From a virus (taxonomy: Duplodnaviria > Caudoviricetes): a stretch of 56,847 bases of DNA. The stretch lies in IMG/VR virus record IMGVR_UViG_3300042879_003989, positions 1 through 56,847 of that record. The stretch is one strand, 5' to 3'. The position numbers were made by a program, and so were the translations under genes. The notes beneath the pieces are model-generated. The model made no database searches. It had not been told where the DNA came from and worked only from the letters and a program-made list of their open reading frames with translations. How positions within the stretch are numbered: the first letter of the stretch is position 1; every line of letters starts with the position of its first letter. Below, in pieces: positions 5,669 through 56,847 of this stretch.

Positions 5669-5689
5669 GGATGTCGACTCCTGCGCGGG

Positions 5690-5722
5690 ATGGTAGGCGG
5701 CGCGGCCCGTCCAACGGACACG
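5690..5722 (-). promoter_or_regulatory. Late-type promoter for tail fibre (CGTGTCCGT-N18-TACCAT)
   Basis: One of five copies with identical spacing. Confidence 0.8.
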
Positions 5723-8700: not shown

Positions 8701-11700
8701 CCACCAGGGCGCGCACGAGCTGGTCGGCCGTCTCGTAGCCGAACATGTCGGCCACGGTCTCAGGCGCCAGGCCGTCCTTGGAGGTCATCCCGCGCAGCTT
8801 GGTCAGGTCAGGCCTGGCCAGCATGGTCTCGGGGTACATCGCGGCCAGGGCCTCGGTGTTGAGCCTGAAGCCCTTCTCGGCCTTGACCGACTCGCCCGTC
8901 ACCGGGTCAGTCGTCTCGCCCTTCTTCAGCCAGCGCATAGCGCGGTACAGCGGTTGCTGCTCGACCTCGGCCGTGACCGCCTCGCGCGTGGCCTTCTCGA
9001 CTTCGCGAGCCTCTTTCTTCAGCTTGGCGATGACCTTGTCGCGCGCCTTCACGGCCCACTTGAGGTCGGCCATCGAGCGCTTCTGCAGGCGCTCGGCCGC
9101 CTCGCCATCGGCCTGCTCGTCGGGCACCAGGCCGGCCACCTCGTTGGCCTGCTGGATCTGCTCGTCGGTGGCAAGCATGCGGTCCATCACGCGGCGGATG
9201 TCGTCGTTCAGCGGGGTCTGCTCGGCCTCGGGCCGGGCGGCCATGAACTGCTTGATCGACTGGTAGACGTTGATCAGCCAGGCGCGGAAGCGGCGCATCA
9301 GCGGCTGCAGCTCGGCGTTGGGGGCTCTACCCTCCATCACGTACTGCTCAATGCTCTCGGCCCAGCGCTCGTGGTAGGGGCGCTTCTGGTCGAGGGTGTA
9401 GCCGTTCCAGGTGGCGAGGTCAGGCACCCCGCTCCACTTCAGGAACGTGTTCATGTCCTCGACGATCTGCGCCGGTGCGCCGGGCTGGCTCGCGATGTCG
9501 GCCAGCACCTCGAGGAAGAAGTGCCCGGTCTCGTGGAACCAGGTGCTCAGGTCCGCGTTGGGGTTGAGGACGAGCTCGAGCGTGCGCGGGTTGAAGGTGC
9601 CGCGGGCGCCTTGCTCTAGCACCTCTTGGCCCTGGGCCGGTGCTGCAGGCGCCGCGGCCCGCTGCGCAGCCTGGCGCGCTGCGCGGGCCCGCTGGCGCTG
9701 CTCGCGCGCGACGCGGCGCACGGCGCGGGTCTGGTTGGCCACCGCGTTGTCGTAGGCGTTCGTGCCGGCGAACCGCTTCCCGTCCAGGCTGCTGTAGCCC
9801 CCGGTGAACGTCGGGTCGTAGACCATGAACACGACGTCGGGCTCGCCGTTGTTGTAGCGCTGCAGCGCCGCCTTGTCCCAGCCGGCGGGCGCCTGGCTGT
9901 CGTCCCAGGTCAGGCGCGACACCGCCACGAACCCGTGCGCCGAGTAGAACTCGGGCAGGATCGTGTCGAAGGCGTCGAGCTTGGTGCCGCCGGCCGAGAC
10001 GGCCAGCGCCATCACGGCGCGGCCGGCGCCGCCCTGGCTGAACACCGAGACGATGTCGCCGTCGGGCTTGAGCGCAAAGCCCGACTTGCCGTCCTTGGCC
10101 AGGAACAGCCGCATGCCGGCGTAGTCGGCCGTCGGGTAGACGTAGACCGCCGCGCCGACGGCGCCGCTGGCCTGCTTGCTGGCGGTGATCGCGTCAGCGA
10201 AGCGCTGCGCGTTGGCGGCTTCGCCCGGGGCGAGCTCGACGAACTGCGGGGCGGCGAGCTGGTTGGCCTTGAAGACCGTGCCGGCCGAGCGGCTGGGTTT
10301 CCACTCCTCGACGTACGTGACGCCGAGTGCTTTTAGAAGCCGAGCTTTTCCGCGTCCTCCATCGCCTGCTCGCGCGTAAGCCCCGGATGGTTGGCCAGCG
10401 CCATCTCGATCGGATCGGAGCCGGAGTACGGCGCGGGCGCCGATGAAGAAGCGCTTTGCCTGCTCAGTAAAGCCTCCAGCCGCTGGCGGCTGCCCGGCTC
10501 CAGCTTGAGCTCCTTGCTCTGCATTTCCTGGTCGTGCAGTTGCTGATCGTCCACCTCGAGCCTCCGTGTTCAGCGCAATGTTGATCCGCCGCGAGGTCAC
10601 CCCCGCCTTGCGAGCAACGTCCGCGGCGGCATTGGCGTAGTCCGGTGCCTCATCGTCCGCGTACCCTTCGATCGTATCATCATCTGCTAAATCCTGTTTA
10701 GCGGATTCGTACAGGCGTTTCTCGGCGTACCAGAGCACGGCCTGCAGGTCGGCCATCGTGAGATTGGCGTAGCGCTCGTCCTGGCGCAGGTTGTCCAGGA
10801 TGCGGCCGAACACCTCGCGGATGTACTTGCGCTCCAGCGGCCCGGCCGGCGCTTCCTTCTGGCCGTCCAGGTACTTGGCCAGCGAGTTGCCGGCCTTGCG
10901 CAGCTCCACGCCGGTGTCTGTCTGGTTTAGCACCTCGCGCACCGCCGGGTCGACGCTCGCCTCCTGCACGGCCACGGCGAGCTGGTCGACCGACATGTCG
11001 GCGGTGATCGGCGTGTTGATCGCCTCGGACAGTCGCGCGCGCTCGGTCTCATCGGCGGCGATCTGACGCAGCGCTTCGGCCAGGCGGTCGCGCGCCTTGC
11101 CCGTCTGCACCGGCATCGGCCGAATCAGCGTGCCCGTCCAGCGACCCCAGGTGCGGATTAGCCAGCGGTCCATGGTCAGGGCCGCGAAGTTGCCGTACAG
11201 GTTCGAGAAGAACCCGTTGCCGATCTTCGGCCCCAGGATGGCCGCGCCGCGCACCGTCACGTCGGCGTGCTCGCCGCCGGGCTTGAGCTCCTTGGCGATC
11301 GCCGTGATCTGGCCGACCGTGAAGTTGCTCTGCATGAAGCGGCGCAGGTTCTCGAGGCCCCACGTCTGCGCCAGCTCGTTGAACTGCGCGAGCGACTTGT
11401 TGATCGCGTTCTTGGCCGTGCCGATGCCGGCATTGGTCGGCATGCGCCGGTCTTCGACCTTCTTGGCCGAGGCCTTCCAGGTGCGGTACACCTGCTCGGC
11501 GATCTCGAAGTTCTTGCCGACCTTCAGGCCGTTGGAGGTGACCGCGAGCGCCCACACGAACGCCAGGCGCGCGTCCTGGTCGGTGGCGATCTCCGGGTGC
11601 ACCAGCGCCATGACGGCGAGCGCCTGGCGCGTCTTGAGGTCGTACCAGCCGATCGCGTTTTTGTTCTGCTCCAGCGCGAGCAGCGCGTCCTGCAGACCCA

Positions 11701-14005
11701 CGCGCACCAGGTACTCGGTGGTCTGGGGCGACGGCGCCCCGACGTCCACGCCGGCCGCACGTGCGAGCGCCTGCAGGCCCTCCTGCATGGCCACCTTGAG
11801 GTCGCGCCCCTTCTGCCAGACCTTGCCCTTGGCAACCTGCAGCATGTTGGCCAGCGTCGCGCCCGCGTCGACCGACTCGGGCACCGTGCCCTGCACGATC
11901 GCCGCGACGTCGTCGCTGGGTTCGACCGGGTCGCCCTGCAGGGTCTCGGCGGGTGCGGCGGGCTCTTGGTTCAGCACCTGGCCTTGCCCTGCCCGATTCA
12001 GCGCCACGATGTTGATCGCCACCGCCTCGGTGGCCATGGCCTCGCGCTCGGGGGTCATCTCGACGCCCAGGCTGCGCATCTTGGTCTCGACGCGGCGGGC
12101 GAACTCTTCCTCGCCCACGGTGTCGATCGCCTCCTGCACCTTCTCGACGGTGGGGATGTCGGCCACGGCCTGCACTTCCTGCATCGTCGCGATCGGCAGA
12201 CCCTCGCGGTCGAACTCGCGCGCCGGCGCATTGAGCACATCGCCCTGCCCGCCCTGCCCCGTCGGTGCGCCCAGCACCCGCAACCGGTAGCGCTGGTACA
12301 TCTCCTCGGGCGTGATTCCAAGGCGCGCGCTGTAGGCCGTGTAGAACGCGCTGGCCCAAGAGGCCATGCCCTCGTTGACCTGGCCGCGGTAGCGCCCGGC
12401 CGTGTTGAGGTCGGTCAGGATCGACTGGCGCACGGCCTCGGAGCTCGCGCGCATGGCCTCCTGATCCTGCGCCTGGGCGATGACGCGCTGGGCCTCCTGC
12501 TGCAGGAACTGCTGCGCCTGCTTGCCGGCCTCCTCGGCCTCGACCAGGCTCGGCGCGTCGGGCGCGCTGCGGGCGTTCTGCATGAACACCTCGGCCTGGG
12601 GCGTGCCGGGCGTCACGGTCAGCACGTCAGCCAGCTTGACTGCCACCGGCGCGTTGGCGAGCAGCGCCTCAGGCAGCGCCTCGGCCACGCCCTCCATGCG
12701 CTGCAGCAGCTCGGGCGGCATCTGGTTGAGCACCTCGGCGTCAACGTACACCGAGCCGTCCTCGGCCATCTCGGTCATCAGCGCGCGGAACTGCTCGGGC
12801 GAGCGCTCGCGCAGCTTCGACGCCTCCGCTGCCCGCAGCGCCTGCTCCAGCGCCTGGGCCGTCAAGCCCGCGCGCTGCATGTTGGCGCCGTCGCGCGTGG
12901 CGCGCGAGATCATGGCCTCCAGGCCCTTGGCCACCGCGACGTTGCCACCCGTTCCAACGATCGTTGCAACCAGCGTCTGCGCCGCGGCGCTCGGCCGCTC
13001 CTCCAGGTAGCTCGTGAACGGCTTCTCGGGGTTCAGGATCGCCCACTCGTTCAGGTCTTGCAGCACGGTGGCGATCTGTTCGCCGGGCACCTCCAGCAGC
13101 ACCTGGCGGCCCAGGATCTGCAGGAACCCCGCGCCGGCGCGCACGTCCTTGAGCAGTGCGCCCAGCGGCAGCTTCTCGGTGGCGTACTCGATCGCGGCCT
13201 GCGAGGCGGCAAACGGCAGCGCCTGCGACATCGGCAGGCCCTTCTCGCGCGCCTGCTGGTAGGCGTCGCCGCCGGTGAACGCGGTCATGCCCGACAGCGC
13301 GAACCCCTGGCCGCCCGGCAGGAACGCCGCGGGCAGCGTGATCAGGTTCTGGGTGAGCGACTCGATGCCGCTGAAGAACCCGCCCTCGATGACACCCTCG
13401 GTCTTCGGGCGCGCGGCCTGGGCCGTCTGCCCAGCCGCCTGGCCCTGCAGCGCGAAGCCCTCGGCCAGGCGGCGCAGCGGGTTGCCGCCGGGAAACGGCA
13501 CGCGGGGCAGCAGGCCCGGGCTCGTGGCCAGCGGGTCGACGGGCTCGAAGATGTCCAGCGCCGGCGCGACGAGCTCGAGCCCCGCCTGGAACGTGCCGGC
13601 GGCGCCGCGGCTGGCGCGGAACACGCCGGCCTTCATGGCGCCGCCCAGGTCGCCGACGAAGTTGCCGACCTTGGTCAGCACCGGGATGTCGTCCTGCGCC
13701 ATGGCGGCGAGCTTCACGTCGCGGCGCATGAGCTCGCGCAGCATCGGCGCCTTCTGCAGGTCGCTGTCCGAGAGGTCGAGCACCTCCTGCAGCCGGTAGG
13801 CCTCGAGGTCCTGCACGATGACCTCGGCCGGCGCCGGGTAGCGCTTGGCCAGGCGCTCGGCCTCGGCCATCGCGTCGGGCTTGATCGTGACGGCGGTGCT
13901 CAGGACCTGGCGCGGGGTCGGCCCCACGATCGGGTCTTTGTCCCAGGGGGCGGCGGGAGCGCTGGGTTGGGCCGGCGGCGTGATGGGGTCGTTCTGCCAG
14001 CTCAT
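5723..14005 (-). CDS. Giant internal virion/ejection protein (gp16 position), polyvalent: HhH-glycosylase-like, GNAT and HExxH zincin domains
   Basis: 2760 aa from MSWQND (ATGA overlap); GWY...TS...GPK...NL.G...TMDRW..R...QAVLW; KLDAFD..L.EFY..HGF; HETGH at 9521-9535. Confidence 0.85.
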   Translation of the reverse strand: MSWQNDPITPPAQPSAPAAPWDKDPIVGPTPRQVLSTAVTIKPDAMAEAERLAKRYPAPAEVIVQDLEAYRLQEVLDLSDSDLQKAPMLRELMRRDVKLAAMAQDDIPVLTKVGNFVGDLGGAMKAGVFRASRGAAGTFQAGLELVAPALDIFEPVDPLATSPGLLPRVPFPGGNPLRRLAEGFALQGQAAGQTAQAARPKTEGVIEGGFFSGIESLTQNLITLPAAFLPGGQGFALSGMTAFTGGDAYQQAREKGLPMSQALPFAASQAAIEYATEKLPLGALLKDVRAGAGFLQILGRQVLLEVPGEQIATVLQDLNEWAILNPEKPFTSYLEERPSAAAQTLVATIVGTGGNVAVAKGLEAMISRATRDGANMQRAGLTAQALEQALRAAEASKLRERSPEQFRALMTEMAEDGSVYVDAEVLNQMPPELLQRMEGVAEALPEALLANAPVAVKLADVLTVTPGTPQAEVFMQNARSAPDAPSLVEAEEAGKQAQQFLQQEAQRVIAQAQDQEAMRASSEAVRQSILTDLNTAGRYRGQVNEGMASWASAFYTAYSARLGITPEEMYQRYRLRVLGAPTGQGGQGDVLNAPAREFDREGLPIATMQEVQAVADIPTVEKVQEAIDTVGEEEFARRVETKMRSLGVEMTPEREAMATEAVAINIVALNRAGQGQVLNQEPAAPAETLQGDPVEPSDDVAAIVQGTVPESVDAGATLANMLQVAKGKVWQKGRDLKVAMQEGLQALARAAGVDVGAPSPQTTEYLVRVGLQDALLALEQNKNAIGWYDLKTRQALAVMALVHPEIATDQDARLAFVWALAVTSNGLKVGKNFEIAEQVYRTWKASAKKVEDRRMPTNAGIGTAKNAINKSLAQFNELAQTWGLENLRRFMQSNFTVGQITAIAKELKPGGEHADVTVRGAAILGPKIGNGFFSNLYGNFAALTMDRWLIRTWGRWTGTLIRPMPVQTGKARDRLAEALRQIAADETERARLSEAINTPITADMSVDQLAVAVQEASVDPAVREVLNQTDTGVELRKAGNSLAKYLDGQKEAPAGPLERKYIREVFGRILDNLRQDERYANLTMADLQAVLWYAEKRLYESAKQDLADDDTIEGYADDEAPDYANAAADVARKAGVTSRRINIALNTEARGGRSATARPGNAEQGAQAGAGQPPAAGGFTEQAKRFFIGARAVLRLRSDRDGAGQPSGAYARAGDGGRGKARLLKALGVTYVEEWKPSRSAGTVFKANQLAAPQFVELAPGEAANAQRFADAITASKQASGAVGAAVYVYPTADYAGMRLFLAKDGKSGFALKPDGDIVSVFSQGGAGRAVMALAVSAGGTKLDAFDTILPEFYSAHGFVAVSRLTWDDSQAPAGWDKAALQRYNNGEPDVVFMVYDPTFTGGYSSLDGKRFAGTNAYDNAVANQTRAVRRVAREQRQRARAARQAAQRAAAPAAPAQGQEVLEQGARGTFNPRTLELVLNPNADLSTWFHETGHFFLEVLADIASQPGAPAQIVEDMNTFLKWSGVPDLATWNGYTLDQKRPYHERWAESIEQYVMEGRAPNAELQPLMRRFRAWLINVYQSIKQFMAARPEAEQTPLNDDIRRVMDRMLATDEQIQQANEVAGLVPDEQADGEAAERLQKRSMADLKWAVKARDKVIAKLKKEAREVEKATREAVTAEVEQQPLYRAMRWLKKGETTDPVTGESVKAEKGFRLNTEALAAMYPETMLARPDLTKLRGMTSKDGLAPETVADMFGYETADQLVRALVDATPMSEVVDALTERRMLEEHGDLIDERAIQEAANEAVHNEARARSLATELRTQQEMLGQRTDTGQVNARGARITVNALIEAAKQFGANVVARTSLRDLKATAWKHTAAERRAGKRWQEHTAKGETADAVKAKQDQVLNNAAAKAALDAATEAKKILEFFKRVTKGNDEKVVEKGRDPDIVNAARAVLAAYGIETPTTKAAAAYLEALQQNDPETAAVVGPMILQATQNAQPLEALTFEELQGLHESIQAMWHLAKRSRQMEVDGDLMDIDDAADELYTRMEEIGIPDTVPGESGALTKAELIKRAVLQQAPALLRRVEQWAEAKDGKFGGPFLRLIFQPIKDAADRYRAERLEYRKKFQALVDNIAPMMPTQPIEAPELNYTFGRGHNGIGMAELLHAILHTGNESNKRKLLLGRGWATELPDGTLDTSRWDAFIQRLANSGVLQREHFDFAQGVWDLLEQTKPLAQKTHRDVFGRYFAEVTADTFTDPFGVARRGGYVPAQADPLLVQDAELRDLLETENAGMSYAFPQTNRGFTKSRVEYNRPLKLDLRSLPQHIDKVLLFSHMESPVRAAARLIKRPKVSQPLGRIDPAAISGVLKPWLNRSARQTVETPISADAGLNRMMSTIRGRVGMALMFANLSNTLQQITGVSSAAIKVRPALMMRAVAEYVASPKKFSQAVWDASPYMADRASNEVAVLSDTLEKILINPSVYESAEQFTRRHSYFLQTAFDNVLSPIIWQAAYNQGLVEGMEERMAIRYADGVIRQTQGSTLPEDVSRIETGPAYARIFTQFVGYFNMLANTNATALQQIAREQGLKKGAGKAFSVLMLGLMVPIWVAEAIALAFKGGPDDEDDDGYLDDWLAQVIGFGTIKGVLSGIPFVGALGQSVVNRFNDQPADDKFSLSPTVSVLESAAGAPASVYKAIVDDASAQKAVRDVAALVTVTTGLPAMTLARPVGYGAGVAQGRIEPTSAADAARGLVTGTASPESKQR
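10333..10554 (-). CDS. Nested 73-aa gene overprinted in the +1 frame of the ejection protein gene
   Basis: GGAGG 6 nt before GTG; host frame switches to A/T-ending codons (CGA GGT GGA CGA TCA GCA); protein-like C-terminus DPIEMALANHPGLTREQAMEDAEKLGF. Confidence 0.7.
   Translation of the reverse strand: MDDQQLHDQEMQSKELKLEPGSRQRLEALLSRQSASSSAPAPYSGSDPIEMALANHPGLTREQAMEDAEKLGF
10671..10700 (-). promoter_or_regulatory. Intragenic extended -10 promoter for nested gene 1, with operator-like half site
   Basis: GATTTAGCAGATGATGA-TACGAT; AT-rich island; 9/10 inverted repeat at 10682-10706. Confidence 0.6.
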
Positions 14006-15570
14006 TGCTTCGTGCGCTGATTGCCCTGGGGGTCGATGTAGACGGTGCCCTTGGGCAGCCGGGCCCACTCCTCGGTGGTGGTGATGCGCACCGGGGCGGC
14101 CGGCGCGGCGCCCACACCGAGGGCCTTGTTGCGCACCTCACGGTCGGCCTTGAACGCGGGGTCTTTCGTGTCCCACAAGAACCCGGGCTTCGTGACGATC
14201 TCGCGATTCAGGTCGCGCATGATCTTCTCGCGCTCGTCGTAGGTGGGCTCCTTGCCGGTGCGCTTGAGGTGTTCGTTGAACAGGTCGTAGGCGGCCGACT
14301 GGAACTTGCCCACGTTCTCGCCCTTGAGATCGAGCGAGCGCGTGAACGCGGCGAGCTGCTGCTCGGAGGTTGCCACCTCGGGCGCCTTCGACGGCGTGCG
14401 GGCCTTGGTTTGGATGTCGAGCAGTTGCTCCATCTGCGCCGGGGCGACCTTGGTCGTGAGCGCCACCAGGTTGACCTTCTCGCCCGCGGCGAGCTTCTCG
14501 CGCGCGTCGATGTAGGTGGCCCAGTCGGTCTTGACCGGCGTGCCCTCGGCGACCTGCTTGGCGCGCGTCCTGACGTAGTCCTGGAGCTGCACGCGGTTGC
14601 GCCCGTCCATCTGCGCGAGCAGCGACTCGGGCACCTTCTTGCCCTGCCCCACCAGTTGCCAGGCCTGATCGCTCACGGCCGCCTCGCGCTCCTGCTGCGC
14701 GGCCTTGACCATGGCCTGGTTGTTGCGGATCTGGGTGAGGGCCTTCTCGCGCCGTTCCGGGTTCTCGATCTTGGCCGCCTCGGCGAGCTGCTCGCTCAGG
14801 GGCTTCGTGGCCACGCGCGCGGCGAACTGCGTCGCGAACTGGTTGTCAGCCTCGCCCTTGAGCACCTGCTCCACGCGCGGCTGCGCCGTGGCCGGGATCT
14901 CGCCCTTGTTCGCGTCGTAGTAGGCCTGGGCCTGGGCCGCGTCGCGCTCGACCAGGCGCTGGATGTGCGTCACGTGCAGGGTGCCCAGCAGGCGCTGCTG
15001 CTCGGCCTGCACGAGCTCGGTGGTCCAGCCCTTGCGCGCGCCCTTCTCGGCGGCGATCTGGCGCACGCGCGCGGCGGCGCCCGCGGTGTCGCCGGTGTCA
15101 ACCCCGAACTCGATCGAGCTCTGCGCGGCGGCCTCGGACTGATCGTCGGCGAAGCGCTCCTTCTCGGAGTTGACGTAGCTCGACACCGAGCCGAACGCCT
15201 GGTTGCGCTTGCGCCCGAGCGCCTGGCCGATGCGCGCCTGGGCCATGGGCGAGGCGTTGCCGGCGTAGGCGGTCTTGGCGTTGTCCCACCACTTGGTGGC
15301 CTCGGTCTGGTACTGCTCGACGTTCTGCCCGCGATACTTGGGCCGGTTGGCCGCGTCCCACTCCAGCCAGCCGCGCGTGATCTCGTCGTCGATGCGGTTG
15401 GCCTCGACCTCTACGTCGCGCTGCACCCGCCGGTCGGCCACCTCGCCAATCACGCCGGCCGCGCGCGCCAGCGCCTGGGTGCCCGAGCTCACGTCGGGCG
15501 TGCGCCCGAACACCGGCTGCAGTGCCTGGGTGCGGACCTGCGGGCCCTCGTACAGCGGAACCTGGGGCAT
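14002..15570 (-). CDS. Internal virion/ejection protein (gp15 position)
   Basis: Helical 522 aa starting MPQVP.Y; synteny. Confidence 0.75.
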   Translation of the reverse strand: MPQVPLYEGPQVRTQALQPVFGRTPDVSSGTQALARAAGVIGEVADRRVQRDVEVEANRIDDEITRGWLEWDAANRPKYRGQNVEQYQTEATKWWDNAKTAYAGNASPMAQARIGQALGRKRNQAFGSVSSYVNSEKERFADDQSEAAAQSSIEFGVDTGDTAGAAARVRQIAAEKGARKGWTTELVQAEQQRLLGTLHVTHIQRLVERDAAQAQAYYDANKGEIPATAQPRVEQVLKGEADNQFATQFAARVATKPLSEQLAEAAKIENPERREKALTQIRNNQAMVKAAQQEREAAVSDQAWQLVGQGKKVPESLLAQMDGRNRVQLQDYVRTRAKQVAEGTPVKTDWATYIDAREKLAAGEKVNLVALTTKVAPAQMEQLLDIQTKARTPSKAPEVATSEQQLAAFTRSLDLKGENVGKFQSAAYDLFNEHLKRTGKEPTYDEREKIMRDLNREIVTKPGFLWDTKDPAFKADREVRNKALGVGAAPAAPVRITTTEEWARLPKGTVYIDPQGNQRTKQ

Positions 15571-43757: not shown

Positions 43758-44912
43758 TCAGGTCTCGATCACCGTGCCGCTGCCCGAGTCGCTGGTGCCC
43801 GTGGTGCAGCTTACGTAGACGTTGCGACCGATGATCGCGCCCGGCACGTTGGCCACGATCCGCACGCCCACCGACTCGTTCGACACCCGGTTGAAGCGCA
43901 CGATCGCGCCGGTGTTGTTGGCGCCACCCCCCAGCACAATGCCGTGGTTCGATCCCGCCGCCTGGTCGTTGTCGTCGACGTCGTTGTCCTGCACCCAGGT
44001 GCGCGCCACCGCCCCCGTGCCGGCGTAGGTCACGCCGATGCCGTGCAGGTTGTTCTTGCGGGTCACGTTGCCGAGCACGCGGTTGCGGTCGAGGGTGTCC
44101 CCGGCCGTGCCGGTGTAGACCAGGATGCCGTTGCCCGTGTTGCTGTAGGTGTGGTTGCCGACCACCTCAGTGCGGTTGGCGCCGACCGTCACGTAGACGC
44201 CCTCGCCGCCGTTGCTGAAACTGTGGTTGCCGCGCACCAGGGTGTCGTCGGCGTAGCTCACCTTGATGCCGTCGACCAGGTTGCCCGACACCCAGTTGTC
44301 GAGCACCTTGACCCCGAGCACCGCGTTGCCGCTGCTGCCGGCCACGTAGATGCCGTGCTCGTTCACCGCGCCCGTGATGCGGTTGCCGCGCACCTCGGCG
44401 AAGTCGGCGTCGGTCTGCACGTTCACGCCCCAGCCGTAGGGGTTGACGATCACGTTGTCGAGCACCTTGCAGTCGGTCGAGTTGTTGAGCTGCACCGCCG
44501 ACTGGAAGCCGGTGACGTGGCAGCGCATCACCCGGCAGCGGTGGCTCGAGCTCTTGGCGCTGACGAAGCGCGCCGTGGCGCTGCCGTAGGCCACGCCCAG
44601 CGTGCCCGACTCCGCGCGCAGGCCTTCGATCGTGACGTCGGTCTTGCCGACCAGGTCGAAGGCGTTGAAGTTGAAGCCGTTGGCGGTGGTGATCCGGCCG
44701 CCGCCGTACCAGCGCTGGCCGGTGCGCGGCGTGATGCTTGCCGTGATGCGGTAGGTCTTGGCCGGATTCAGGAACACCTGGCCCCAGTCGCCGGCGGCGG
44801 TGGCCGCGGCGTTGATTGCGGCGGTGTCGTCTGCCGTGTTGTTGCCCAGAGCGCCGAAGGTCTCCGGGGTGACGAAGGCGCCGATCATCGAAGCGGGTAC
44901 GGTGGTGGTCAT
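43758..44912 (-). CDS. Anchor-less beta-helix tailspike-like protein (prophage 2)
   Basis: MTTTVPASMI..., FGA.G....DDT.AIN.A, GN/NG beta-helix repeats. Confidence 0.85.
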   Translation of the reverse strand: MTTTVPASMIGAFVTPETFGALGNNTADDTAAINAAATAAGDWGQVFLNPAKTYRITASITPRTGQRWYGGGRITTANGFNFNAFDLVGKTDVTIEGLRAESGTLGVAYGSATARFVSAKSSSHRCRVMRCHVTGFQSAVQLNNSTDCKVLDNVIVNPYGWGVNVQTDADFAEVRGNRITGAVNEHGIYVAGSSGNAVLGVKVLDNWVSGNLVDGIKVSYADDTLVRGNHSFSNGGEGVYVTVGANRTEVVGNHTYSNTGNGILVYTGTAGDTLDRNRVLGNVTRKNNLHGIGVTYAGTGAVARTWVQDNDVDDNDQAAGSNHGIVLGGGANNTGAIVRFNRVSNESVGVRIVANVPGAIIGRNVYVSCTTGTSDSGSGTVIET

Positions 44913-48868: not shown

Positions 48869-48893
48869 GGGTGCAACTCCAGATTCTCAGGCG

Positions 48894-48926
48894 ATGGTAT
48901 GCGCCCGTGTCCGCTGCACGGACACG
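48894..48926 (-). promoter_or_regulatory. Late-type promoter (CGTGTCCGT-N18-TACCAT), prophage 2
   Basis: Same motif and spacing as in prophage 1. Confidence 0.8.
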
Positions 48927-48927
48927 A

Positions 48928-51900
48928 TCAGCGCTGCTTCGACTCGGGGCTGGCGGTGCCGGTGATCAGGCCGCGCGCGAGGTCGGCCGGGCCTTCGGGC
49001 TCGATCTTGCCCTGGGCCACGCCCGCGGCGTAGCCGATCGGCCTGGCCAGGCCGTACACCGGCACGCCGGTGGCCACGCTCACCAGGGTGGCGACGTCGC
49101 GGATGGCTTTCTGCGCGCTGCCGTCCTCGACGATCGCCTTGTAGACCGACTGCGGCGCGCCGACGCTGGACTCCAGCAGGCTCACCGCAGGCGACAACGA
49201 CACGCGGTCGTCGAGCGGGTTGTCGTTGAAGCGCTGCACGGCGGCCACGCCGAACTGGCCCGCGATCGGGATCTGCGCCAGCAGGCCCTTCGCCGTGCCC
49301 ATGCCGAACACCTCGGCCAGCCAGTCGTCGAGGTAACCGTCGTCGTCCTCATCCTCGGGCCCGCCACGGAACGCGAGCGCGATCGCCTCGGCGATCCAGA
49401 TCGGCGCCATGAAGCCCATCATCACGACGTACAGCGCCTTGCCCGCGCCCTTCCTCAACCCAACCTCGCCCGCGAGCTGCTTGAGCGCGGTGCCGTTGGT
49501 GTTGGCCATCATGTTGAAGTAGCCCACGAACTGCGTGAACGCGCGGGCGTAGGCCGGGCCGGTCTCAAACCGGCTCACATCCTCGGGCAGCGTCGAGCCT
49601 TGGGTCTGGCGCACCGTCGAGTCGGCGAAGCGCACCGCGTCGGTGTCGCTCATGCCGTCGGCCAGCGCCTGGTTGTAGGCGCCCGTCCAGACGATCGGCG
49701 AGAGCACGTTGTCGAGCGCAGTCTGCAGGAAGTAGGCGTGTCGGCTCGACCAGTCCTTGACCTTCTCGTAGGTGCTCGGGTTGAGCAGGATGGCCTCCAT
49801 TTGCTCGTTGAGCACCGACACCTCGTTCTTGGCCCGGTCGTCCATGTAGGGCGAGGCGCCCCACACGGCCTGGCTGAACTGGCGCGGGTTGGCCACGTAC
49901 TGCGCCAGCGAGCGCATCAGGAAGCTGGGCTTCACGCGCACCGCGGCCGTCGACAGGCCGGTGATCTGCTGCACGGCGTTGCTGACGTTGGCGAACATGA
50001 GCGCCATGCCTGCGCGTGCGCGGATGATGCCTGGCAGGCGGGCCCACTTGCCCGAGCCTACGATCGGCGTCTCGACGATCTGCTGCGCCGAGCGCTGCAG
50101 CCAGGGCTGCAGCATCGACTCCAGCGCTGCCGGCTGGATGCGGTCCAGCGGCTGGCTGACCTGCTTGCGCGTGAGCAGCTTGCGCACGTCGCGCGCGGGG
50201 TTGGTCATGAGCGAGAACAGCAGCACCTTGTCCAGGTGCTGCGACAGCGAGCGCAGGTCCAGCATCAGCGGCCGGTTGTACTCGGTGCGGGCCATCGTGA
50301 AGCCCTTGGCCGGCTGCGGGAACGCGAAGGCCATCGAGTTGTTCTCTTCCTCGGCCAGCTTGCGCAGCGCGTTGTCCTTGACCAGGCGCCCGTCGACCTG
50401 GGCCGGCACGTAGCCGCCGCGGCGCATCACGCCAAAGGGGTCGATGAACTCGTTGGCGGTGACCTCGCTGAAGTAGCGGCCGAAGGCGTCGCGGTGCGCC
50501 TTCTGCGCCAGGGGCTTGGTCTCCTCCAGCAGGTCCCACACGCCCTGGACAAAGTCGTAGTGCCCCTGGGCGAGCTTGCCCTCGGCCACCAGGCGGTTGA
50601 TGAACGCATCCCACTGCGTGGTGTCGAGCGTGCCGTCGGGCAGCTCGGCGGCCCAGCCGCGGCCGAGCAGCAGCTTGCGCTTATTCGAGTCGTTGCCGGT
50701 GTGCGCGATCGCGTGCAGGATCTCGTTCATCGCCGTGCCCGCTGTCGAGCCCGGCGTGCCGAAGGTGTATCCGAGCTCGGGCGCCTCGATCACGGCGTCG
50801 GCGGCGATCGGCGGGATCTGCTCGACCAGCGCCTGGAACTTCTTGCGGTACTCGATGCGCTCCTTGCGGTAGCGGTCGGCCGCGTCCTTGATCGGCTGGA
50901 ACACCAGCCGCAGGAACGGCCCGCCGTACTTGCCGTCCATGCCCTCGGCCCACTGCTCGACGCGGCGCAGGAACGCGATGCCTTGCTTCAGGAAGAGCCC
51001 GCGCTCCTCGGCCCGGGTGACGGCCATGCCCTCGCCCGGCACGCGGTCGGGGATGCCGATCTGCTCCATGCGCGCGAAGAGCTCGCCGGCCGCGTCGTCG
51101 ATGTCCAGCAGGTTGCCGTCCACCTCCATCTGCCGCGAGCGCTTGGCCAGGAACCACATCGCACGCACGGCCTCGTTCAGGCCCTGCAGCTCCTCGAACG
51201 TCAGCGCCTCCAGCGGCTGGGCGTTCTGCGTGGCCGCGGCGATCATCGGCTCCAGCGCCGACCAGGTGTCGGGGTCGTTCTGCTTGACGCGCTCCAGGTA
51301 GGCGGCAGCGCCCTTGCTGGCCGGCGTCTCGACGCCGTACATCGCGAGCACCGCACGCGCGGCGTTGACGATGTCGGGGTCCCTGCCCTTCTCGACCGTC
51401 TTCTCGTCGTTGCCCTTGGTGACCCGGGCGAAGAACTCCAGCACCTTCTTCGCCTCGGCCGCCGCGTCCAGCGCCGCCTTGGCTGCGGCGTTGTTGAGCA
51501 CCTGGTCCTGCTTGGCCTTGACCGCGGCGGCCGTGTCGCCGGTCATCGTTGCCTCTTGCCAGCGCTTGCCGGCGCGGCGCTCGGCGGCGGTGTGCTTCCA
51601 GGCGGTGGCGCGCAGGTCCTTGAGCGAGGTGCGCGCGATCACGTTGGCGCCGAACTGCTTGGCCGCCTCGACCAGCACGCTGACCGTGACACGCGCGCCG
51701 CGGGCGTTGACCTGGCCGGTGTCGGCGCGCCCGCCCAGCATCTCCTGCTGCGTGCGCAGCTCGGTGGCCAGGGACCGGGCCCGGGCCTCGTTGTGCACGG
51801 CCTCGTTGGCCGCCTCGGTGATGGCCCGCTCGTCGATCAGGTCGCCGTGCTCCTCCAGCATGCGGCGCTCGGTCGCGCCGTCGATCGACTCGGCGCGGTC

Positions 51901-54900
51901 ACCGAAGGCCTCGATCGCGCGGTACATCGCCTCGACGCTCGGGTAGCCGAAGCTGTCGGCAATCGCCGCGATGTTCATGTCGGCCGCCATCGGGTCGGCC
52001 TCGAACTCTTTCTCGGCCTTCTCGATCGCAGCCTTGGCCAGCACCTCGGGGCGCTGGTTGATCTCGGCCGTGACCTCGGCGCGGATGGTCTTCTCGATCT
52101 CGCGCGCCTCGCGCTTGAGCTTGGCGATGACCTTGTCGCGCGCCTTCACGGCCCACTTCAGGTCGGCGATCGAGCGCTTCTGCAGGCGCTCGGCCGCCTC
52201 GCCGTCGGCCTGCTCGTCGGGCACGAGGCCCGCCACCTCGTTGGCCTGGGCGATCTGCTCGTCGGTGGCGAGCATGCGGTCCATCACGCGGCGGATGTCG
52301 TCGTTGAGGCCCATCCGGGGGCCGGCAGGCTGGTCGCCTTGGCCCAGCACCTCGCCGCTGATGGCGCTGACGATCTGCTTGGGGTCGAAAACAACCCACT
52401 CCCCATCGGCTTTGGCGTGCACGCTGTCGTAGCCCATGCCACGCAGCTTTGCGATTACTTCGTCGTCGGACAGTTTGCCGCTTGGGTCCACGAAGTTGAA
52501 AAGCTGCTCGCTGGCGTCGTTTACGCTGTCGATCACCAACGGGTTGCGAACGGTCAGGTAGACCGGCAAGATCTTGTTTGCCCCACCCTCTTGGCCTCGT
52601 CGCGTTGTGACGTCTGCGTACCCCTCGGCCACCTTGGGGTTATCGGTGAAATAGACACCGGGACCCATAGCCCCGATGCGACTTGGCTTGAACTTCGCAA
52701 AGTCACCGCGCGTGCCGTGGTACAGCACGAGTGGCCGGCCGTTCTCGTCTGTCAACACGCCCTCGGGCGCAGCCGCCTGCCCCAGCGTCTGCCCGCCCGC
52801 AGGCGCGACACCGCGCGCCGCAAGGAACTGCTTGATCGACTGGTAGACGCTGACCAGCCAGGCCCGGAAGCGGCGCATGACCGGCGCGAGCTCGACGCTG
52901 GGGGCCTTGCCCTCCATGACGTACTGCTCGATGCTCTCGGCCCAGCGCTCGTGGTACGGGCGCTTCTGGTCGAGCGTCATCGCGTTCCAGGTCGCGAGGT
53001 CCTGCACGCCGAACCAGGCCAGCACCTTGGCCATGTCGTCGGCGATCTGCTGCGGGGCGCCCGGCTGGCTGGCGACGTCGGCCAGCACTTCGAGGAAGAA
53101 GTGCCCGGTCTCGTGGAAGAACGTTGAGAGGTCCGCGTTGGGGTTGAGGACCAGCTCCAGGGTCTGCGGGTTGAACGTCCCGCGGGGGCCCTGTTCTAAG
53201 ACTTGCGGGGCGGCAAGCCCGGCGGCTGCAGGCTCGGGGCGCTGCGCATCCCCGCCGAGTACGTCTCCACCGGGTTGTCCGCCAGCGGTTTCTCGTACCT
53301 GGCGATCTGCGCCCTCAAGCCCTGCACGAACGGGTTGTCCGGTCCACTGCGGGCCTCGGACTCCGCCAGCGCCTCCTTCAGCAGTTCCAGTTGCGAGGGC
53401 ATCGATCTTCTCCTGATACTCGGCGCTGAACGCCACCTGCGTGTCGTACCAGAACTGACCGGCAAACGACACGCCTTCCACCGAGGCAGACACCCGCTCG
53501 GCCAGCGCCCGCAGCTCGGACGCTTTGGCCTTGATTTTATCAGCAAGTGCTACATCGTCCAAACCGCCAAAATCGTCCATGCCGTAGCGCTGTTCGAACT
53601 CGGGCACGTACTGCAGGCGCACGCCGACGGCGGCCGGCATCTCGCCGGCCATCGTGTTGGCGAGACGTCGGCCGTCGACGATCACGGTCAGAAACTCGAC
53701 GCCCTCCTGGGCCAGGTCGGCCAGCACCTTCTCCAGCTTCTCTGCGTCCGCAGCGCTGCGGAAGTAAATCTCGACGCCCGGCCGGTGGCGCTGGTAATCG
53801 ACGTCCTCGTTGACGCGCAGCACCCTCGACAGGAACGTGCTGTCCTGGCGCGCGGCCTGCGCCTGGCGCAGCATCTCCAGCCACAGGACGTTGGCGTCGT
53901 AGCCCTCGCGCGCCACGACCTCCAGGTCGAGCGAGCGCTCGATGCCGCCGTAGCGGCCCTGCGTCGACAGGGCCTTTGCGCCGAGCACGGTGCTGCCGTC
54001 GTCGGGTGCGTAGACCGCTAGGCGGATCGCTTCGGCCAGGCGCGCCATATCGGCGTCGGTGGGCACGAAGTCGACGCCCTGGGTGTCCTTCGACATCTGG
54101 ATCGACAGGCCCCCGACGAAGCGGTCGACCTCGCGCTCCAGCGCGGCGAGCTCAGCCTTGGCCGCGACCTTGCGGGCGTTGAACGCCTCCAGGCGGGCCT
54201 TGGCGCGCTCGACGTTGCCGATCAGGCGCGTGGCCTCGACGGGTGGGCGCACGATCCGGCCGAGCTCGATCATGCGCTTCTTGGTGCCCTTGACCTCGCC
54301 GCTTTGCAGCTTGCGCAGCTCCGCGATCTCGGCCTCGTGCGCGCGCTCGTGATCCTCGATCATCTTGAGCGCGGCGGTCGTGTCCTGCCCGGCGGTGACC
54401 AGGTCAGAGGTCGGCGGCGACGAGTCGATGATGCTGCGCAGCTCCTTGACGCGCGCCTGCTGCGAGGTGCCGGTCAGGTTGGCTTCAAGCTCGAACGAGC
54501 CGCCTTCGCCCGCTGCGCTGGTCCAGTCGTTGACCGTCCAGACTTCCTTCTCGATGAACCACACGACGGCCTGCAGGTCGTCGTCGTTGGTCTTGGCCAG
54601 CACCGGATCGGTGTTGAGCTCGGGGTCGTTGCGGATGTCGCGCGCCGCCTTGGCGAAGACATCCTGCCCGAAGCCGAACTGCAGCGTCGTGGTGGCGTCC
54701 TCGCGCATCTCGCCCGACACGCCGGTCTCGGCGACCGAGGGGATGCGCCGGCGCCCGGCCAGGCGCTGCAGCATGCGCGCGGCCCACACGTCGATCGTGG
54801 CGCGCTGGCGGAACCCGATCAGGTTGCCGCTGAAGTTCAGCGCCTTGGGCGCAGTGCCGCCGCGGCCGATGTCCGGGTCGGCGTTCTTGACCACGCGCCA

Positions 54901-56847
54901 CAGATCGACCATCGCGCGCGCCACGTTGCGCCCGTTGAAGCCGTACTTCGAGCCCGACTCCTTCTTCGGCAGCAGCGCGTCGGGGAACTCACGCGCAGCG
55001 CGCAGCGCGTCCACCTTGGTCTTGTACTCGGGCAGGTCCTTGACCGCCCGCTTGCTCAGGCCTTCGGCCTGGCGCTCGTTGAACCAGGACCGCAGATCGG
55101 TCTCCAGCGCGTCGACCCGGTCGAAGTAGGCTTCCCACTGGACGATGAGCTGATCGAAGTCGCCGCGGCTGGCACGGCGCAGCGCGTCGACCGCGTTGAA
55201 CCAGTTGTCGCGCACCGGCGTGTTGGGGCTGGTCGCGCCCAGCAGGTCGGCGAACAGATCGCCCAGGCCGCCGAACTCCTGGCGCAGGCGCGTGCGCATG
55301 GCCTTGTACCAGCCGGCCTGCGCGAGGATGTTGCGGGCGTTGGCGTCGCCTCGGGCGGCGCGCTTGAAAACCGTGCGCACCTCCTCGACCATGCCTCGCG
55401 CCACTGCGTTGACGCGGCGCGTGTAGTTGGCGGTGCCGGGCTCCAGCGACTTACCGTCGGCATCGGCGCTGAACTGGTACGAGATCGTCTTGTACTCGTG
55501 CATGACCTTGCGGTCATCGCCGGTGCCCTCGACGACGGTGCGCGAGTAGGTGAGCGGTTCCCAGCCCTGGGCCACCGGGTGGGCCATCTTCGTCTTGCGC
55601 ACGGCCGCTTCAATCTCGGCCACGGACACGCCGGTGGCCGCGGCCGAGGCGTCGATCGCTGCGCGCTCCTCGGCGCTGATCATCGAGCGCTCGGCCGTCT
55701 CGCGGATGCCGCGCGCGGCCACCATTTGCAGGCGCTCGACGGCGGCCTGGTTCAGCACCCCGCGCTGCTCGAGCAGCGCACCCGCCTGCGCGCGCGGCAC
55801 GATGAAGAACTGGTCGGGCGTGTACTGCGCCAGCATCTCCAGGCGAGTGACCAGCGTCGGCTCCTCGCCCATCTCGTGCGCAGCGAACACCAGGTCGCCA
55901 TCGGCGAACGCACGCTCGAGCTCGACGCGGTTGGCAGGTTGCGTGCCGTACTGGGTGATGAGCTCCTCGACCACGTCGGGATCGAGTGCGGCGCGCGCCC
56001 GCTCAAAGACTTGGCCTTCGAGCGCGCTCTTGCGAACGATGACCTCGTAGTAGCCGTTGCGCAGCGCGTTGACGGCCAGCACGTCATCAACGCTGACTGA
56101 ATACGGCAGCGCTTGCCGGCCGTTTGCCGCAAACCTGCGCGCCGTGCGCTCATCTGCCATGAACACCGTGCGGGTGCTTGGACTGCGCTCGTTCTCAGGT
56201 GCGTCCGCTCGCCAAAGCGTCAGGCGTTCACCGTACCGTTGCCGCAACAGCTCTCGCGTACCTTGGAACGCTTGGGCAACATCGGCTTCCGTGTACGTCC
56301 CCTGTTCCAGGCTGCGGTCAAGGGCGCGGAGCTTGCCGGGTCTTACGCCTTGAGCGTCTTCCTGCAGGTCGTACTTCAGGAAGTCCTGCAGCGCTTCGGT
56401 TTCTCGCACGGCCACGCTGAGCAGCTCGTCATCAAACACCGCTGCCGGGCTGCCCGGCGCATTCAGCACCCCCGTCTGCTGCCCGGGCGCGGCGCCCAGG
56501 ATGCGCAGCGGGTAGCGCTGGAAGAACTGCTCGGCGGTCAGCCCCAAGCGCGAGCCGTAGGCGGTGTAGAACGCGCTGGCCCAGGTGGCGTAGCCCTCGT
56601 TCACCGCCTCGCGGAACCGGCCCGTGGCGGCGAGCTGACGCTTCACCTCGGCCTTCACCGCCTCCTGCGAGGCGCGCGCCGCGGCCTGGTCCTGGGCCTG
56701 CTGGATGACGCGCTCGGCCTCCTGCTGCAGGAACACCTGCGCCTGCTCGCCGGCGGTCTGCGCCTCGAACGCGCTCGGCGCGTCGGGCGAGGTGCGGGCG
56801 TGCTGGGTCAGCGCATCGGCCAGCGGCGTGCCGGGCGCAACGGTCAG
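48928..56847 (-). CDS. Giant polyvalent ejection protein (prophage 2), 5'-truncated: ART-like, HhH-glycosylase-like, zincin and H-Y-E ADP-ribosyltransferase domains
   Basis: Frame open to the window end; scaffold paralogous to 5723..14005; HETGH at 53101-53115; LYHGT...GVYFT...EWVVFDPKQI. Confidence 0.85.
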   Translation of the reverse strand: MTVAPGTPLADALTQHARTSPDAPSAFEAQTAGEQAQVFLQQEAERVIQQAQDQAAARASQEAVKAEVKRQLAATGRFREAVNEGYATWASAFYTAYGSRLGLTAEQFFQRYPLRILGAAPGQQTGVLNAPGSPAAVFDDELLSVAVRETEALQDFLKYDLQEDAQGVRPGKLRALDRSLEQGTYTEADVAQAFQGTRELLRQRYGERLTLWRADAPENERSPSTRTVFMADERTARRFAANGRQALPYSVSVDDVLAVNALRNGYYEVIVRKSALEGQVFERARAALDPDVVEELITQYGTQPANRVELERAFADGDLVFAAHEMGEEPTLVTRLEMLAQYTPDQFFIVPRAQAGALLEQRGVLNQAAVERLQMVAARGIRETAERSMISAEERAAIDASAAATGVSVAEIEAAVRKTKMAHPVAQGWEPLTYSRTVVEGTGDDRKVMHEYKTISYQFSADADGKSLEPGTANYTRRVNAVARGMVEEVRTVFKRAARGDANARNILAQAGWYKAMRTRLRQEFGGLGDLFADLLGATSPNTPVRDNWFNAVDALRRASRGDFDQLIVQWEAYFDRVDALETDLRSWFNERQAEGLSKRAVKDLPEYKTKVDALRAAREFPDALLPKKESGSKYGFNGRNVARAMVDLWRVVKNADPDIGRGGTAPKALNFSGNLIGFRQRATIDVWAARMLQRLAGRRRIPSVAETGVSGEMREDATTTLQFGFGQDVFAKAARDIRNDPELNTDPVLAKTNDDDLQAVVWFIEKEVWTVNDWTSAAGEGGSFELEANLTGTSQQARVKELRSIIDSSPPTSDLVTAGQDTTAALKMIEDHERAHEAEIAELRKLQSGEVKGTKKRMIELGRIVRPPVEATRLIGNVERAKARLEAFNARKVAAKAELAALEREVDRFVGGLSIQMSKDTQGVDFVPTDADMARLAEAIRLAVYAPDDGSTVLGAKALSTQGRYGGIERSLDLEVVAREGYDANVLWLEMLRQAQAARQDSTFLSRVLRVNEDVDYQRHRPGVEIYFRSAADAEKLEKVLADLAQEGVEFLTVIVDGRRLANTMAGEMPAAVGVRLQYVPEFEQRYGMDDFGGLDDVALADKIKAKASELRALAERVSASVEGVSFAGQFWYDTQVAFSAEYQEKIDALATGTAEGGAGGVRGPQWTGQPVRAGLEGADRQVRETAGGQPGGDVLGGDAQRPEPAAAGLAAPQVLEQGPRGTFNPQTLELVLNPNADLSTFFHETGHFFLEVLADVASQPGAPQQIADDMAKVLAWFGVQDLATWNAMTLDQKRPYHERWAESIEQYVMEGKAPSVELAPVMRRFRAWLVSVYQSIKQFLAARGVAPAGGQTLGQAAAPEGVLTDENGRPLVLYHGTRGDFAKFKPSRIGAMGPGVYFTDNPKVAEGYADVTTRRGQEGGANKILPVYLTVRNPLVIDSVNDASEQLFNFVDPSGKLSDDEVIAKLRGMGYDSVHAKADGEWVVFDPKQIVSAISGEVLGQGDQPAGPRMGLNDDIRRVMDRMLATDEQIAQANEVAGLVPDEQADGEAAERLQKRSIADLKWAVKARDKVIAKLKREAREIEKTIRAEVTAEINQRPEVLAKAAIEKAEKEFEADPMAADMNIAAIADSFGYPSVEAMYRAIEAFGDRAESIDGATERRMLEEHGDLIDERAITEAANEAVHNEARARSLATELRTQQEMLGGRADTGQVNARGARVTVSVLVEAAKQFGANVIARTSLKDLRATAWKHTAAERRAGKRWQEATMTGDTAAAVKAKQDQVLNNAAAKAALDAAAEAKKVLEFFARVTKGNDEKTVEKGRDPDIVNAARAVLAMYGVETPASKGAAAYLERVKQNDPDTWSALEPMIAAATQNAQPLEALTFEELQGLNEAVRAMWFLAKRSRQMEVDGNLLDIDDAAGELFARMEQIGIPDRVPGEGMAVTRAEERGLFLKQGIAFLRRVEQWAEGMDGKYGGPFLRLVFQPIKDAADRYRKERIEYRKKFQALVEQIPPIAADAVIEAPELGYTFGTPGSTAGTAMNEILHAIAHTGNDSNKRKLLLGRGWAAELPDGTLDTTQWDAFINRLVAEGKLAQGHYDFVQGVWDLLEETKPLAQKAHRDAFGRYFSEVTANEFIDPFGVMRRGGYVPAQVDGRLVKDNALRKLAEEENNSMAFAFPQPAKGFTMARTEYNRPLMLDLRSLSQHLDKVLLFSLMTNPARDVRKLLTRKQVSQPLDRIQPAALESMLQPWLQRSAQQIVETPIVGSGKWARLPGIIRARAGMALMFANVSNAVQQITGLSTAAVRVKPSFLMRSLAQYVANPRQFSQAVWGASPYMDDRAKNEVSVLNEQMEAILLNPSTYEKVKDWSSRHAYFLQTALDNVLSPIVWTGAYNQALADGMSDTDAVRFADSTVRQTQGSTLPEDVSRFETGPAYARAFTQFVGYFNMMANTNGTALKQLAGEVGLRKGAGKALYVVMMGFMAPIWIAEAIALAFRGGPEDEDDDGYLDDWLAEVFGMGTAKGLLAQIPIAGQFGVAAVQRFNDNPLDDRVSLSPAVSLLESSVGAPQSVYKAIVEDGSAQKAIRDVATLVSVATGVPVYGLARPIGYAAGVAQGKIEPEGPADLARGLITGTASPESKQR
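53196..53402 (-). CDS. Nested 68-aa gene overprinted in the +1 frame of the prophage 2 ejection protein gene
   Basis: AGGAG 7 nt before ATG; helical hairpin MPSQLELLKEALAESEARSGPDNPFVQGLRAQIARYE; TAG stop made by a rare TTA codon in host-frame VLEQ. Confidence 0.72.
   Translation of the reverse strand: MPSQLELLKEALAESEARSGPDNPFVQGLRAQIARYEKPLADNPVETYSAGMRSAPSLQPPGLPPRKS
53534..53562 (-). promoter_or_regulatory. Intragenic promoter for nested gene 2 with operator-like site
   Basis: TTGGAC-17-TAAAAT with extended TG; TGTAGCA-CT-TGCTGAT at 53539-53554. Confidence 0.68.

Follow-up and report, generated by a model that had tools for sequence, protein, structure and literature searches.

Can a gene that encodes a giant phage virion protein hold a second, complete gene in another of its reading frames? 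The question is raised by a virus record from IMG/VR (IMGVR_UViG_3300042879_003989; hereafter the window, meaning the whole 56,847-bp stretch of DNA analysed, with a guanine + cytosine (GC) content of ~70%). One gene in it encodes a polyvalent protein, predicted to be of the internal-virion (ejection) type, and within this gene, on the same strand, lies an open reading frame (ORF) of 68 codons in the +1 frame, which we call family A. The ORF is contained wholly in the longer gene, and both frames are open across it. Its start signals and open frame are conserved among related loci, and purifying selection acts in both frames. We conclude from these comparative data that family A is very probably a genuine overprinted, or nested, protein-coding gene, and we infer that it is translated by ribosomes that initiate on it independently.

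The ORF begins in the last helix (residues 261-267 of 268 in a structural model) of an unnamed host domain of ~260 residues, hereafter domain X, in agreement with an initial annotation of this DNA that had placed its start where the upstream domain ends. That annotation had also described an AGGAG element 7 nucleotides (nt) before an ATG, a product of 68 residues and a TAG stop inside the host codons GTC TTA GAA CAG (VLEQ), and all of these sequence details are exact (Table 1). At the nested ATG the host gene uses GAT, not GAC, despite the 70% GC of the window. The nested stop is supplied by a host leucine codon, TTA (53196-53201, minus strand), that is probably rare at such GC.

Conservation across related loci

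A search with domain X (window 53404-54207) found 26 viral loci with 48-99% identity in the domain and GC contents of 0.41-0.69, and in 26/26 a +1 ORF starts with ATG at the same site. These ORFs span 58-68 codons, save for 144 codons in four loci of one subgroup (L013-L019) and two ORFs that run off the end of the locus. The Shine-Dalgarno (SD) sequence is of GGAG type in the window and throughout the 26 loci, with the exception of L022 (AAGGA); low-GC loci build it from GAG-GAG or CAG-GAG, and the more distant loci have AAGGAG, AGGGAG or AAGGA. In 10 low-GC loci a stop codon directly precedes the nested ATG, and stops are frequent past the end of the ORF. Homologues of the upstream domain thus show the conservation that the initial annotation had put forward as a check, of the ORF in all related loci examined and of the SD wherever it was read.

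A profile search with domain X returned 56 loci, two of which were left out because they are cut off before the domain ends. A +1 ORF of at least 45 codons is present in 54/54 loci with a complete 3' end of domain X, down to 41% domain identity; it was recognized by regular expression in 51 and by eye in three, and ATG, SD and stops were verified in subsets of the 54. Wherever the start was read, an ATG stands at the same site behind an SD of GGAG type or AAGGA. The peptide profile, used as the query, added 15 loci, in 13 of which the ORF is nested right after domain X in a host ORF of >1000 residues; of the remaining two, one is free-standing (L029) and the other spurious (L031). The host frame is open in 35/35 loci tested. 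For the 13 loci with a GC content ≤0.48, the chance that 58 +1 codons remain open at a fixed site, taken from the density of +1 stops in the rest of the host ORF, is 0.04-0.17.

Contigs from four public runs were compared with the window; stretches that two of them (X3 and X24) leave uncovered carry no meaning. Over 53146-54300 a metagenome contig from another sample differs by 49 substitutions and by gaps of 1, 5 and 9 nt near 53206-53216, which together make 15 nt, a multiple of 3, and lie where the family A ORF is variable, at its 3' end. The public runs that hold family A are mostly lake and freshwater metagenomes.

Against 1.84 billion proteins the peptide profile matched 166 cluster representatives (42 at E ≤1e-10), most of them 55-110 residues long and aligned from residue 1. 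The possibility that these are free-standing genes was rejected, as 20 of the 24 close matches come from contigs <4 kb, and the more remote matches correspond to nested ORFs in domain X loci. All 24 close matches are unnamed or trivially named. Family A is thus present in the protein collections only as scattered singletons, and we read the database matches as probable sporadic gene calls of the nested ORF. A tblastn search of the peptide gave nothing but a spurious match (E = 8) in 50,697 phage records and no match in 72,556 plasmids; domain X likewise had no tblastn match in the phage records.

The free-standing ORF of L029 (2998-3279, plus strand), on a contig of a Polynucleobacter metagenome-assembled genome, encodes 92-93 residues and is without domain X. 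Its host frame is a 95-residue remnant that still begins ...QEKIDAI. Its flanking genes we take, from a reading of their translations rather than from searches, to be an XRE-like regulator gene and queE/queD-like genes. A protein of 237 residues (P0055) starts with a family A-like hairpin, followed by ~180 residues resembling a folded domain, and may reflect either a frameshift in the gene call or a natural fusion.

Selection and coding in both frames

Across 53397-53188 (windows starting at 53397-53277), third-position GC is 0.87-0.97 in the +1 frame and 0.43-0.57 in the host frame, and this change to the +1 frame is the sole strong switch along the host gene. By the Nei-Gojobori method on 22 unique sequences, the nested frame has a ratio of nonsynonymous to synonymous differences per site (pN/pS) of 0.58, and pN < pS in 231/231 pairs. 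The ratio is 1.10 in the +2 frame and 1.06 in the host frame (91/231 pairs), and because the host motif is constrained in the core of the overlap, a host value of ~1 is not to be read as absence of constraint.

In domain X of 34 unique loci (middle divergence bin), variability peaks at the host wobble (0.455 versus 0.181 and 0.123); in the overlap, again for 34 unique loci, the host wobble varies least (0.211) and the nested wobble most (0.342). A synplot-type scan of 32 sequences (860 host codons, 208 windows) gave a mean host synonymous-site diversity of 0.486 (standard deviation 0.105), with values of 0.10-0.25 in the windows starting at 53424-53313, from the SD on. The remaining flagged windows lie where the alignment is poor and have few pair-sites (568 and 244). 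Purifying selection is thus visible in two ways, as constraint on the alternative frame and as reduced synonymous variation in the host.

Two further +1 ATG-ORFs lie in the host gene. One, of 153 codons (55059-55517, minus strand), has no synonymous dip (0.46-0.59), serves as an internal negative control and is probably a chance ORF. The other, of 133 codons (55755-56153, minus strand), is outside the aligned region, and GC periodicity there is weakly ambiguous.

The core of the overlap codes in both frames, and the wobble positions of each frame are fixed by the other. In this register the second position of each nested codon coincides with the host wobble. The nested frame reads G-x-[DE]-N-P-[FY]-V-x-G-L-[KR]-x-Q and the host frame W-x-G-[QRK]-[SP]-[IV]-R-x-G-[VLI]-E-x-A. 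Just ahead of the invariant Gly, the nested frame accepts many residues (F, S, Y, H, G, L, V, N, R), yet the wobble of this codon is T in 41/42 unique sequences, giving host Trp in 40/42; two other nested wobbles are G in 42/42, giving host Gly in 41/42 and host Ala in 42/42. Nested helix 1 is conserved where the host is nearly free (host column entropies of 1.6-3.1 bits; 47 unique sequences): Gln at position 4 is invariant, Leu recurs at heptad-like spacing and Glu is conserved. So helix 1 appears to be dominated by the nested frame, and the turn and helix 2 appear to be constrained by both. The host frame had been described as a Gly-rich linker, which fits its composition (16 Gly in 66 residues) and yet understates it, as a conserved motif overlaps nested helix 2.

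The claim that the nested +1-frame gene is real and not a chance ORF is borne out by conservation and by frame-specific selection. We place it beyond chance because of the GC switch, the conservation, the frame-specific substitutions and the synonymous-site dip taken together.

The peptide and domain X

AlphaFold2, run with a 22-sequence alignment, predicts that the peptide forms a helix at residues 4-19, a turn and a helix at residues 24-37, with a predicted local distance difference test score (pLDDT) of ~90, followed by a low-confidence tail. This matches the helix-turn-helix hairpin of the initial annotation. The tail is Pro-rich and carries the motif NP...YS.GMR.AP. The peptide has no Cys, signal or membrane segment and no hydrophobic N-terminus, and the lipobox of an embedded spanin (Rz1-type) is absent. 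The product is best explained as a small soluble protein, which would consist of an amphipathic helical hairpin and a short conserved tail.

The model of domain X has a tandem ferredoxin-like alpha+beta fold. Across 28 sequences 45 columns are invariant, many of them polar, and these invariant polar residues look enzyme-like. Fold matches of domain X to an RND porter (Z 8.4), aldoxime dehydratase (7.3) and phage SAM lyase (6.5) were discarded as generic and within the noise range. In the ESM Atlas, domain X had only meaninglessly low scores (0.81) to serpin-named clusters. Peptide and domain X had no match in Pfam, PHROG, NCBIfam or PADLOC; PDB sequence profiles gave weak TPR-like or irrelevant matches only (E at least 0.07), and the ESM Atlas gave unnamed clusters only for the peptide (best score 0.87). 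The predicted complex of domain X and peptide scored 0.00, 0.80 and 0.00, without controls, and weighs neither way.

The modules downstream of the nested ORF vary by locus (zincin-like VLEQ, ART-like and others), and the window and its 99% relative (L002) part exactly where the nested ORF ends. On this basis the nested ORF belongs to the domain X module. Nested ORF and domain co-vary, family A occurring only after domain X, and a second family, described below, after a DUF7178-like domain.

A second nested gene in the paralog

A paralogous polyvalent gene in the window also holds a nested +1 ORF, family B (Table 1), after a DUF7178-like domain. GC periodicity switches there (10618-10289) as it does at family A. 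By tblastn, family B is found in 36/80 loci of the DUF7178-like domain; the full set comprises 38 loci, including the window and the cultured Limnohabitans phage DC33, with 30 unique sequences. Variation in the family B overlap is lowest at the host wobble (0.383 versus 0.471).

The initial annotation had asserted a nested gene in each of the two paralogs, independent of each other and at analogous positions. Their independence holds, since BLASTP gives no alignment between the family A and family B peptides, and the gene in the paralog is conserved in 38 loci. This conserved gene lies after the DUF7178-like domain and away from the VLEQ boundary. A second candidate in the paralog, the +1 frame that ends at its VLEQ boundary (9909..9616), was rejected, as it has no ATG and reads as off-frame GC-rich sequence. 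The suggestion that nested +1 genes reflect a general design rather than chance has support in these sequence data.

In phage DC33 (L141, PQ492659.1) the family B ORF encodes 71 residues (~7208-7423, plus strand) and is unannotated within a 9378-nt 'hypothetical protein' coding sequence (XLZ15523.1). The taxonomy of the record, Inoviridae, seems mistaken for a genome of 39 kb that carries a gene of this kind.

Longer +1 stretches occur in some loci. The +1 frame is open for 144 codons after domain X in L014-L017 (3279-3710), and for ~130 codons after the DUF7178-like domain in loci of 32-37% GC (L111-L113, L118-L122, L134, L135 and L138; ~2768-3157). These stretches run into the folded host domain that follows and have in common a T-P-rich segment, '...STTTP...LP.(E)LS'. 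They may represent a further, third nested family, or they may simply follow from conservation of that host domain.

Host gene and genomic context

The host protein, encoded in the second of two genomes in the window, is a large multi-domain protein of at least 2639 residues with an ART-PolyVal domain, and its C-terminal 1000 residues match phrog_9880 (E 1.6e-275). The paralogous gene (14068..5723), in the first genome, carries LPD22 (4.9e-11). By PHROG matches, the structural module consists of portal-like (phrog_332) and tail tubular (phrog_376) genes, a lysozyme-bearing internal protein gene, the giant gene and a tail fibre/spike gene; the window also contains genes for a DNA polymerase and a primase-helicase. 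The giant gene stands after the tail tubular and lysozyme-bearing internal genes and directly upstream of the tail fibre/spike gene, the position of a podovirus ejection protein, and is predicted to encode a virion protein. Reading the gene order against that of T7, we take this to be the T7-type ejection protein position. Because of the ART-PolyVal and phrog_9880 matches of the host gene and the LPD22 of the paralog, both are polyvalent proteins at that position. The VLEQ module downstream of the nested ORF had no match in a Pfam scan, and its HExxH motif only suggests that it may be zincin-like.

The window is made up of two related, distinct podovirus-type genomes arranged head to tail, which match at 1-301 versus 44612-44912 and at 5141-9618 versus 48344-53198 (78-90% identity), the shared parts as a whole having 78-93% identity. 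The two-genome record could represent tandem prophages or a chimeric assembly; IMG/VR rates it as 100% complete.

Table 1. Positions in the window of the nested genes, their signals and the surrounding host features
Feature	Position	Strand	Details
Nested +1-frame gene, family A	53196..53402	-	ATG 53402..53400; 68 codons; TAG 53198..53196
Shine-Dalgarno AGGAG	53410..53414	-	7 nt (AAGATCG) before nested ATG; from host codons CAG GAG AAG (Q-E-K)
Core coding in both frames	53307..53348	-	Per-codon comparison, 42-47 unique sequences
Domain X, host residues ~881-1148	53404..54207	-	Unnamed; model pLDDT 85.7
Sigma-70-like promoter match, TGGACG, 16 nt, TAAAAT (with TG, extended -10)	53534..53561	-	1 found versus 0.1 expected
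Host gene, giant polyvalent internal-virion (ejection-type) protein (predicted)	48928..56847	-	5' end open at window edge; 2639 residues read
Downstream module, from VLEQ, HExxH motif (FFHETGHFF)	52750..53195	-	83% DNA identity with paralog copy
ART-PolyVal ADP-ribosyltransferase domain, host residues 1367-1496	52360..52749	-	E 4.8e-24
Nested +1-frame gene, family B	10333..10554	-	GGAGG, 6 nt, GTG; 73 codons, 10554..10336; ends ...GF-stop

Discussion

We propose that, while the giant polyvalent gene is read in frame 0, ribosomes would also start at the internal SD and ATG in the last helix of domain X, translate ~58-68 codons of the +1 frame and terminate shortly before the following module begins. 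This would yield a free hairpin protein of ~60 residues made from the late mRNA. Read in frame 0, the same DNA supplies a conserved C-terminal extension of domain X (W-x-G..R-x-G-x-E-x-A), 60 residues long.

Several points weigh against an overprinted gene. Within this window alone, the length of the family A ORF is unremarkable and not beyond chance: when the host gene was shuffled 500 times among synonymous codons, the mean number of +1 ATG-ORFs of at least 68 codons was 2.0, 92% of the shuffles had at least one, and three were observed. Applied to this window only, the codon-shuffled null that the initial annotation had named as a refuting condition would therefore count against the gene (3 versus ~2); it is the comparative data that show the gene. 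The nested pN/pS of 0.58 is a moderate constraint, and the sequence pairs share ancestry, so that pair counts overstate independence. Additionally, the host frame is strongly constrained in the core, and part of the peptide conservation may be a by-product of the host motif. The co-occurrence of ORF and domain X is forced by physical overlap; because the ORF lies across the last helix of domain X and the conserved extension behind it, finding the two together says nothing independent about a shared function. No family, structure or context match in library searches points to a function of the peptide, and the only contig from an RNA library (225 nt of a metatranscriptome, over 53226-53426) cannot show transcription or translation.

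As to function, we can offer a tentative guess, to which we give less than even weight: that domain X is the target or the partner of the peptide in the producing cell, where the peptide would be a neutralizer (immunity protein) or a folding or packaging chaperone. We make it because the peptide would come from the same late mRNA and is kept wherever domain X occurs. The initial annotation had suggested cognate effector-immunity pairing, for which the data weigh neither way, domain X having no assigned activity. The broader proposal, that polyvalent ejection genes routinely carry domain-specific overprinted genes acting as cognate neutralizers or chaperones of the preceding effector, we think unlikely. 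If it were true, toxin-immunity logic would be packed into one reading unit by dual coding, and a module would carry its own antidote when shuffled.

The alternative that survives best accepts the gene and takes its product to be an independent accessory protein (a moron, counter-defence or lysogen factor) unconnected with domain X, one that happened to arise in the tail of that domain and is now inseparable from it; this we hold to be possible but doubtful. Overprinted viral genes are usually lineage-specific accessory genes (PMC8227390). The L029 ORF survives free-standing without domain X, although this is a single case. A promoter-like site ~130-160 nt upstream of the nested ATG, in domain X codons within an AT-rich island of the 70% GC gene, could permit separate expression, and is a weak hint that the family A ORF could also be expressed alone. 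However, a match of at least 9/12 is found at the same position in only 18/38 loci and is partly accounted for by host residues (L-D/T-D ... K-I/M), and no defence or anti-defence model was matched.

If ribosomes underwent a programmed +1 (or -2) frameshift where domain X ends, making a truncated isoform with the hairpin peptide at its end in place of a free small protein, the +1 frame would likewise be under selection; in high-GC loci this frame has no stop in the 25-86 codons that precede the ATG. Shifting into +1 can be promoted by an SD-like element within a gene, prfB being an example. We nevertheless judge a frameshift very unlikely. The ATG is kept in the 26 loci and the window, in 11 new loci and in two more; 11/17 further loci from the profile search start at that ATG, and the other six, whose ORFs are read from a start farther upstream, have M at the family position. 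The host residues at the ATG vary, and a stop lies directly before it in the 10 low-GC loci. The 7-nt spacing between SD and ATG fits initiation, and a slippery or hungry codon pattern is absent at the site.

It is also conceivable that there is no second protein, and that host constraint combined with an RNA or DNA element (a structure, regulatory site or recombination signal) produces the pattern. The strongly conserved host motif in the core and the promoter-like site close by would agree with this, and high GC alone keeps the +1 frame open in the window. However, substitutions show the codon periodicity of the +1 frame; ATG, SD and open frame persist at GC contents of 0.41-0.48 (P = 0.04-0.17); and nested helix 1 is conserved where host residues vary. 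The predicted folding of RNA at the start is no better than that of shuffled sequence (z = +1.24), and an Rfam search gives no match. We thus consider an explanation without a second protein highly improbable. A chance ORF of GC-rich DNA, of which the codon-shuffle null yields about two per gene, is refuted by the comparative data (GC switch, conservation, substitution pattern and synonymous dip) and retains practically no credence.

Comparison with known systems

Small genes embedded in larger phage genes include Rz1 in Rz, the spanin genes of phage lambda, and 18.7 in 18.5 of T7. As in family A, each is a small +1-frame gene within a larger phage gene and has its own ribosome-binding site. 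Both products are made in these systems, as we predict for family A and its host gene. Rz1, as a lipoprotein, carries a signal sequence and a lipobox Cys, in contrast to the family A peptide, which has no Cys, signal or membrane segment. Rz is a lysis gene, whereas the host of family A would be an injected virion protein.

Overprinted genes of small phages include E in D and K in A/C of phiX174, and L of MS2. Like family A, these are short, structurally simple proteins of one lineage that arise from dual coding. However, phiX174 and MS2 have compact genomes under size pressure and their overprinted products are mostly membrane lysis proteins, whereas family A belongs to a podovirus of 40-45 kb. 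Additionally, the family A overlap, unlike those of phiX174 and MS2, lies at an inter-module junction of a modular gene of 2600 residues and moves with one module.

Polymorphic toxins are said, in work of Zhang and colleagues from 2012, to come as effector-immunity cassettes. The likeness lies in a small family-specific ORF 3' of one variable domain, with families A and B differing by domain. Immunity genes of such cassettes are separate and downstream, whereas the family A ORF is written into the gene itself in a different frame.

For many phages and plasmids the chief "weapon packs" that are injected are polyvalent proteins, each annotated as one giant ORF. The host gene of family A is of the same class as the polyvalent proteins of Iyer et al. 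2017 (PMC5512222), with ART-PolyVal in the host gene, LPD22 in the paralog and a position beside the tail fibre gene. The accessible text of that article uses 'overlapping' 0 times and 'frameshift' 0 times, and uses 'nested' and 'embedded' only for a hairpin fold and peptidase domains. A full-text literature search, within the portions of articles that it covered, returned no description of overprinted genes in polyvalent or ejection proteins.

Our data suggest that giant polyvalent ORFs conceal conserved second genes, which were mostly missed by the gene predictions looked at. They also indicate that inter-module junctions can be functional, as the junction at family A codes in both frames and the module boundary comes right after the nested stop. 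This raises the question of whether shuffled effector modules bring their own small partner, and a cultured phage exists for family B (DC33, on Limnohabitans sp. DCL3); family A has no known cultured host. The core of family A is a clean natural example of strong two-frame constraint, in which a wobble T is held in 41/42 sequences for a host Trp. Family A is notable among overprinted phage genes for this strong two-frame constraint, for its linkage to one module and for the existence of a second, independent family.

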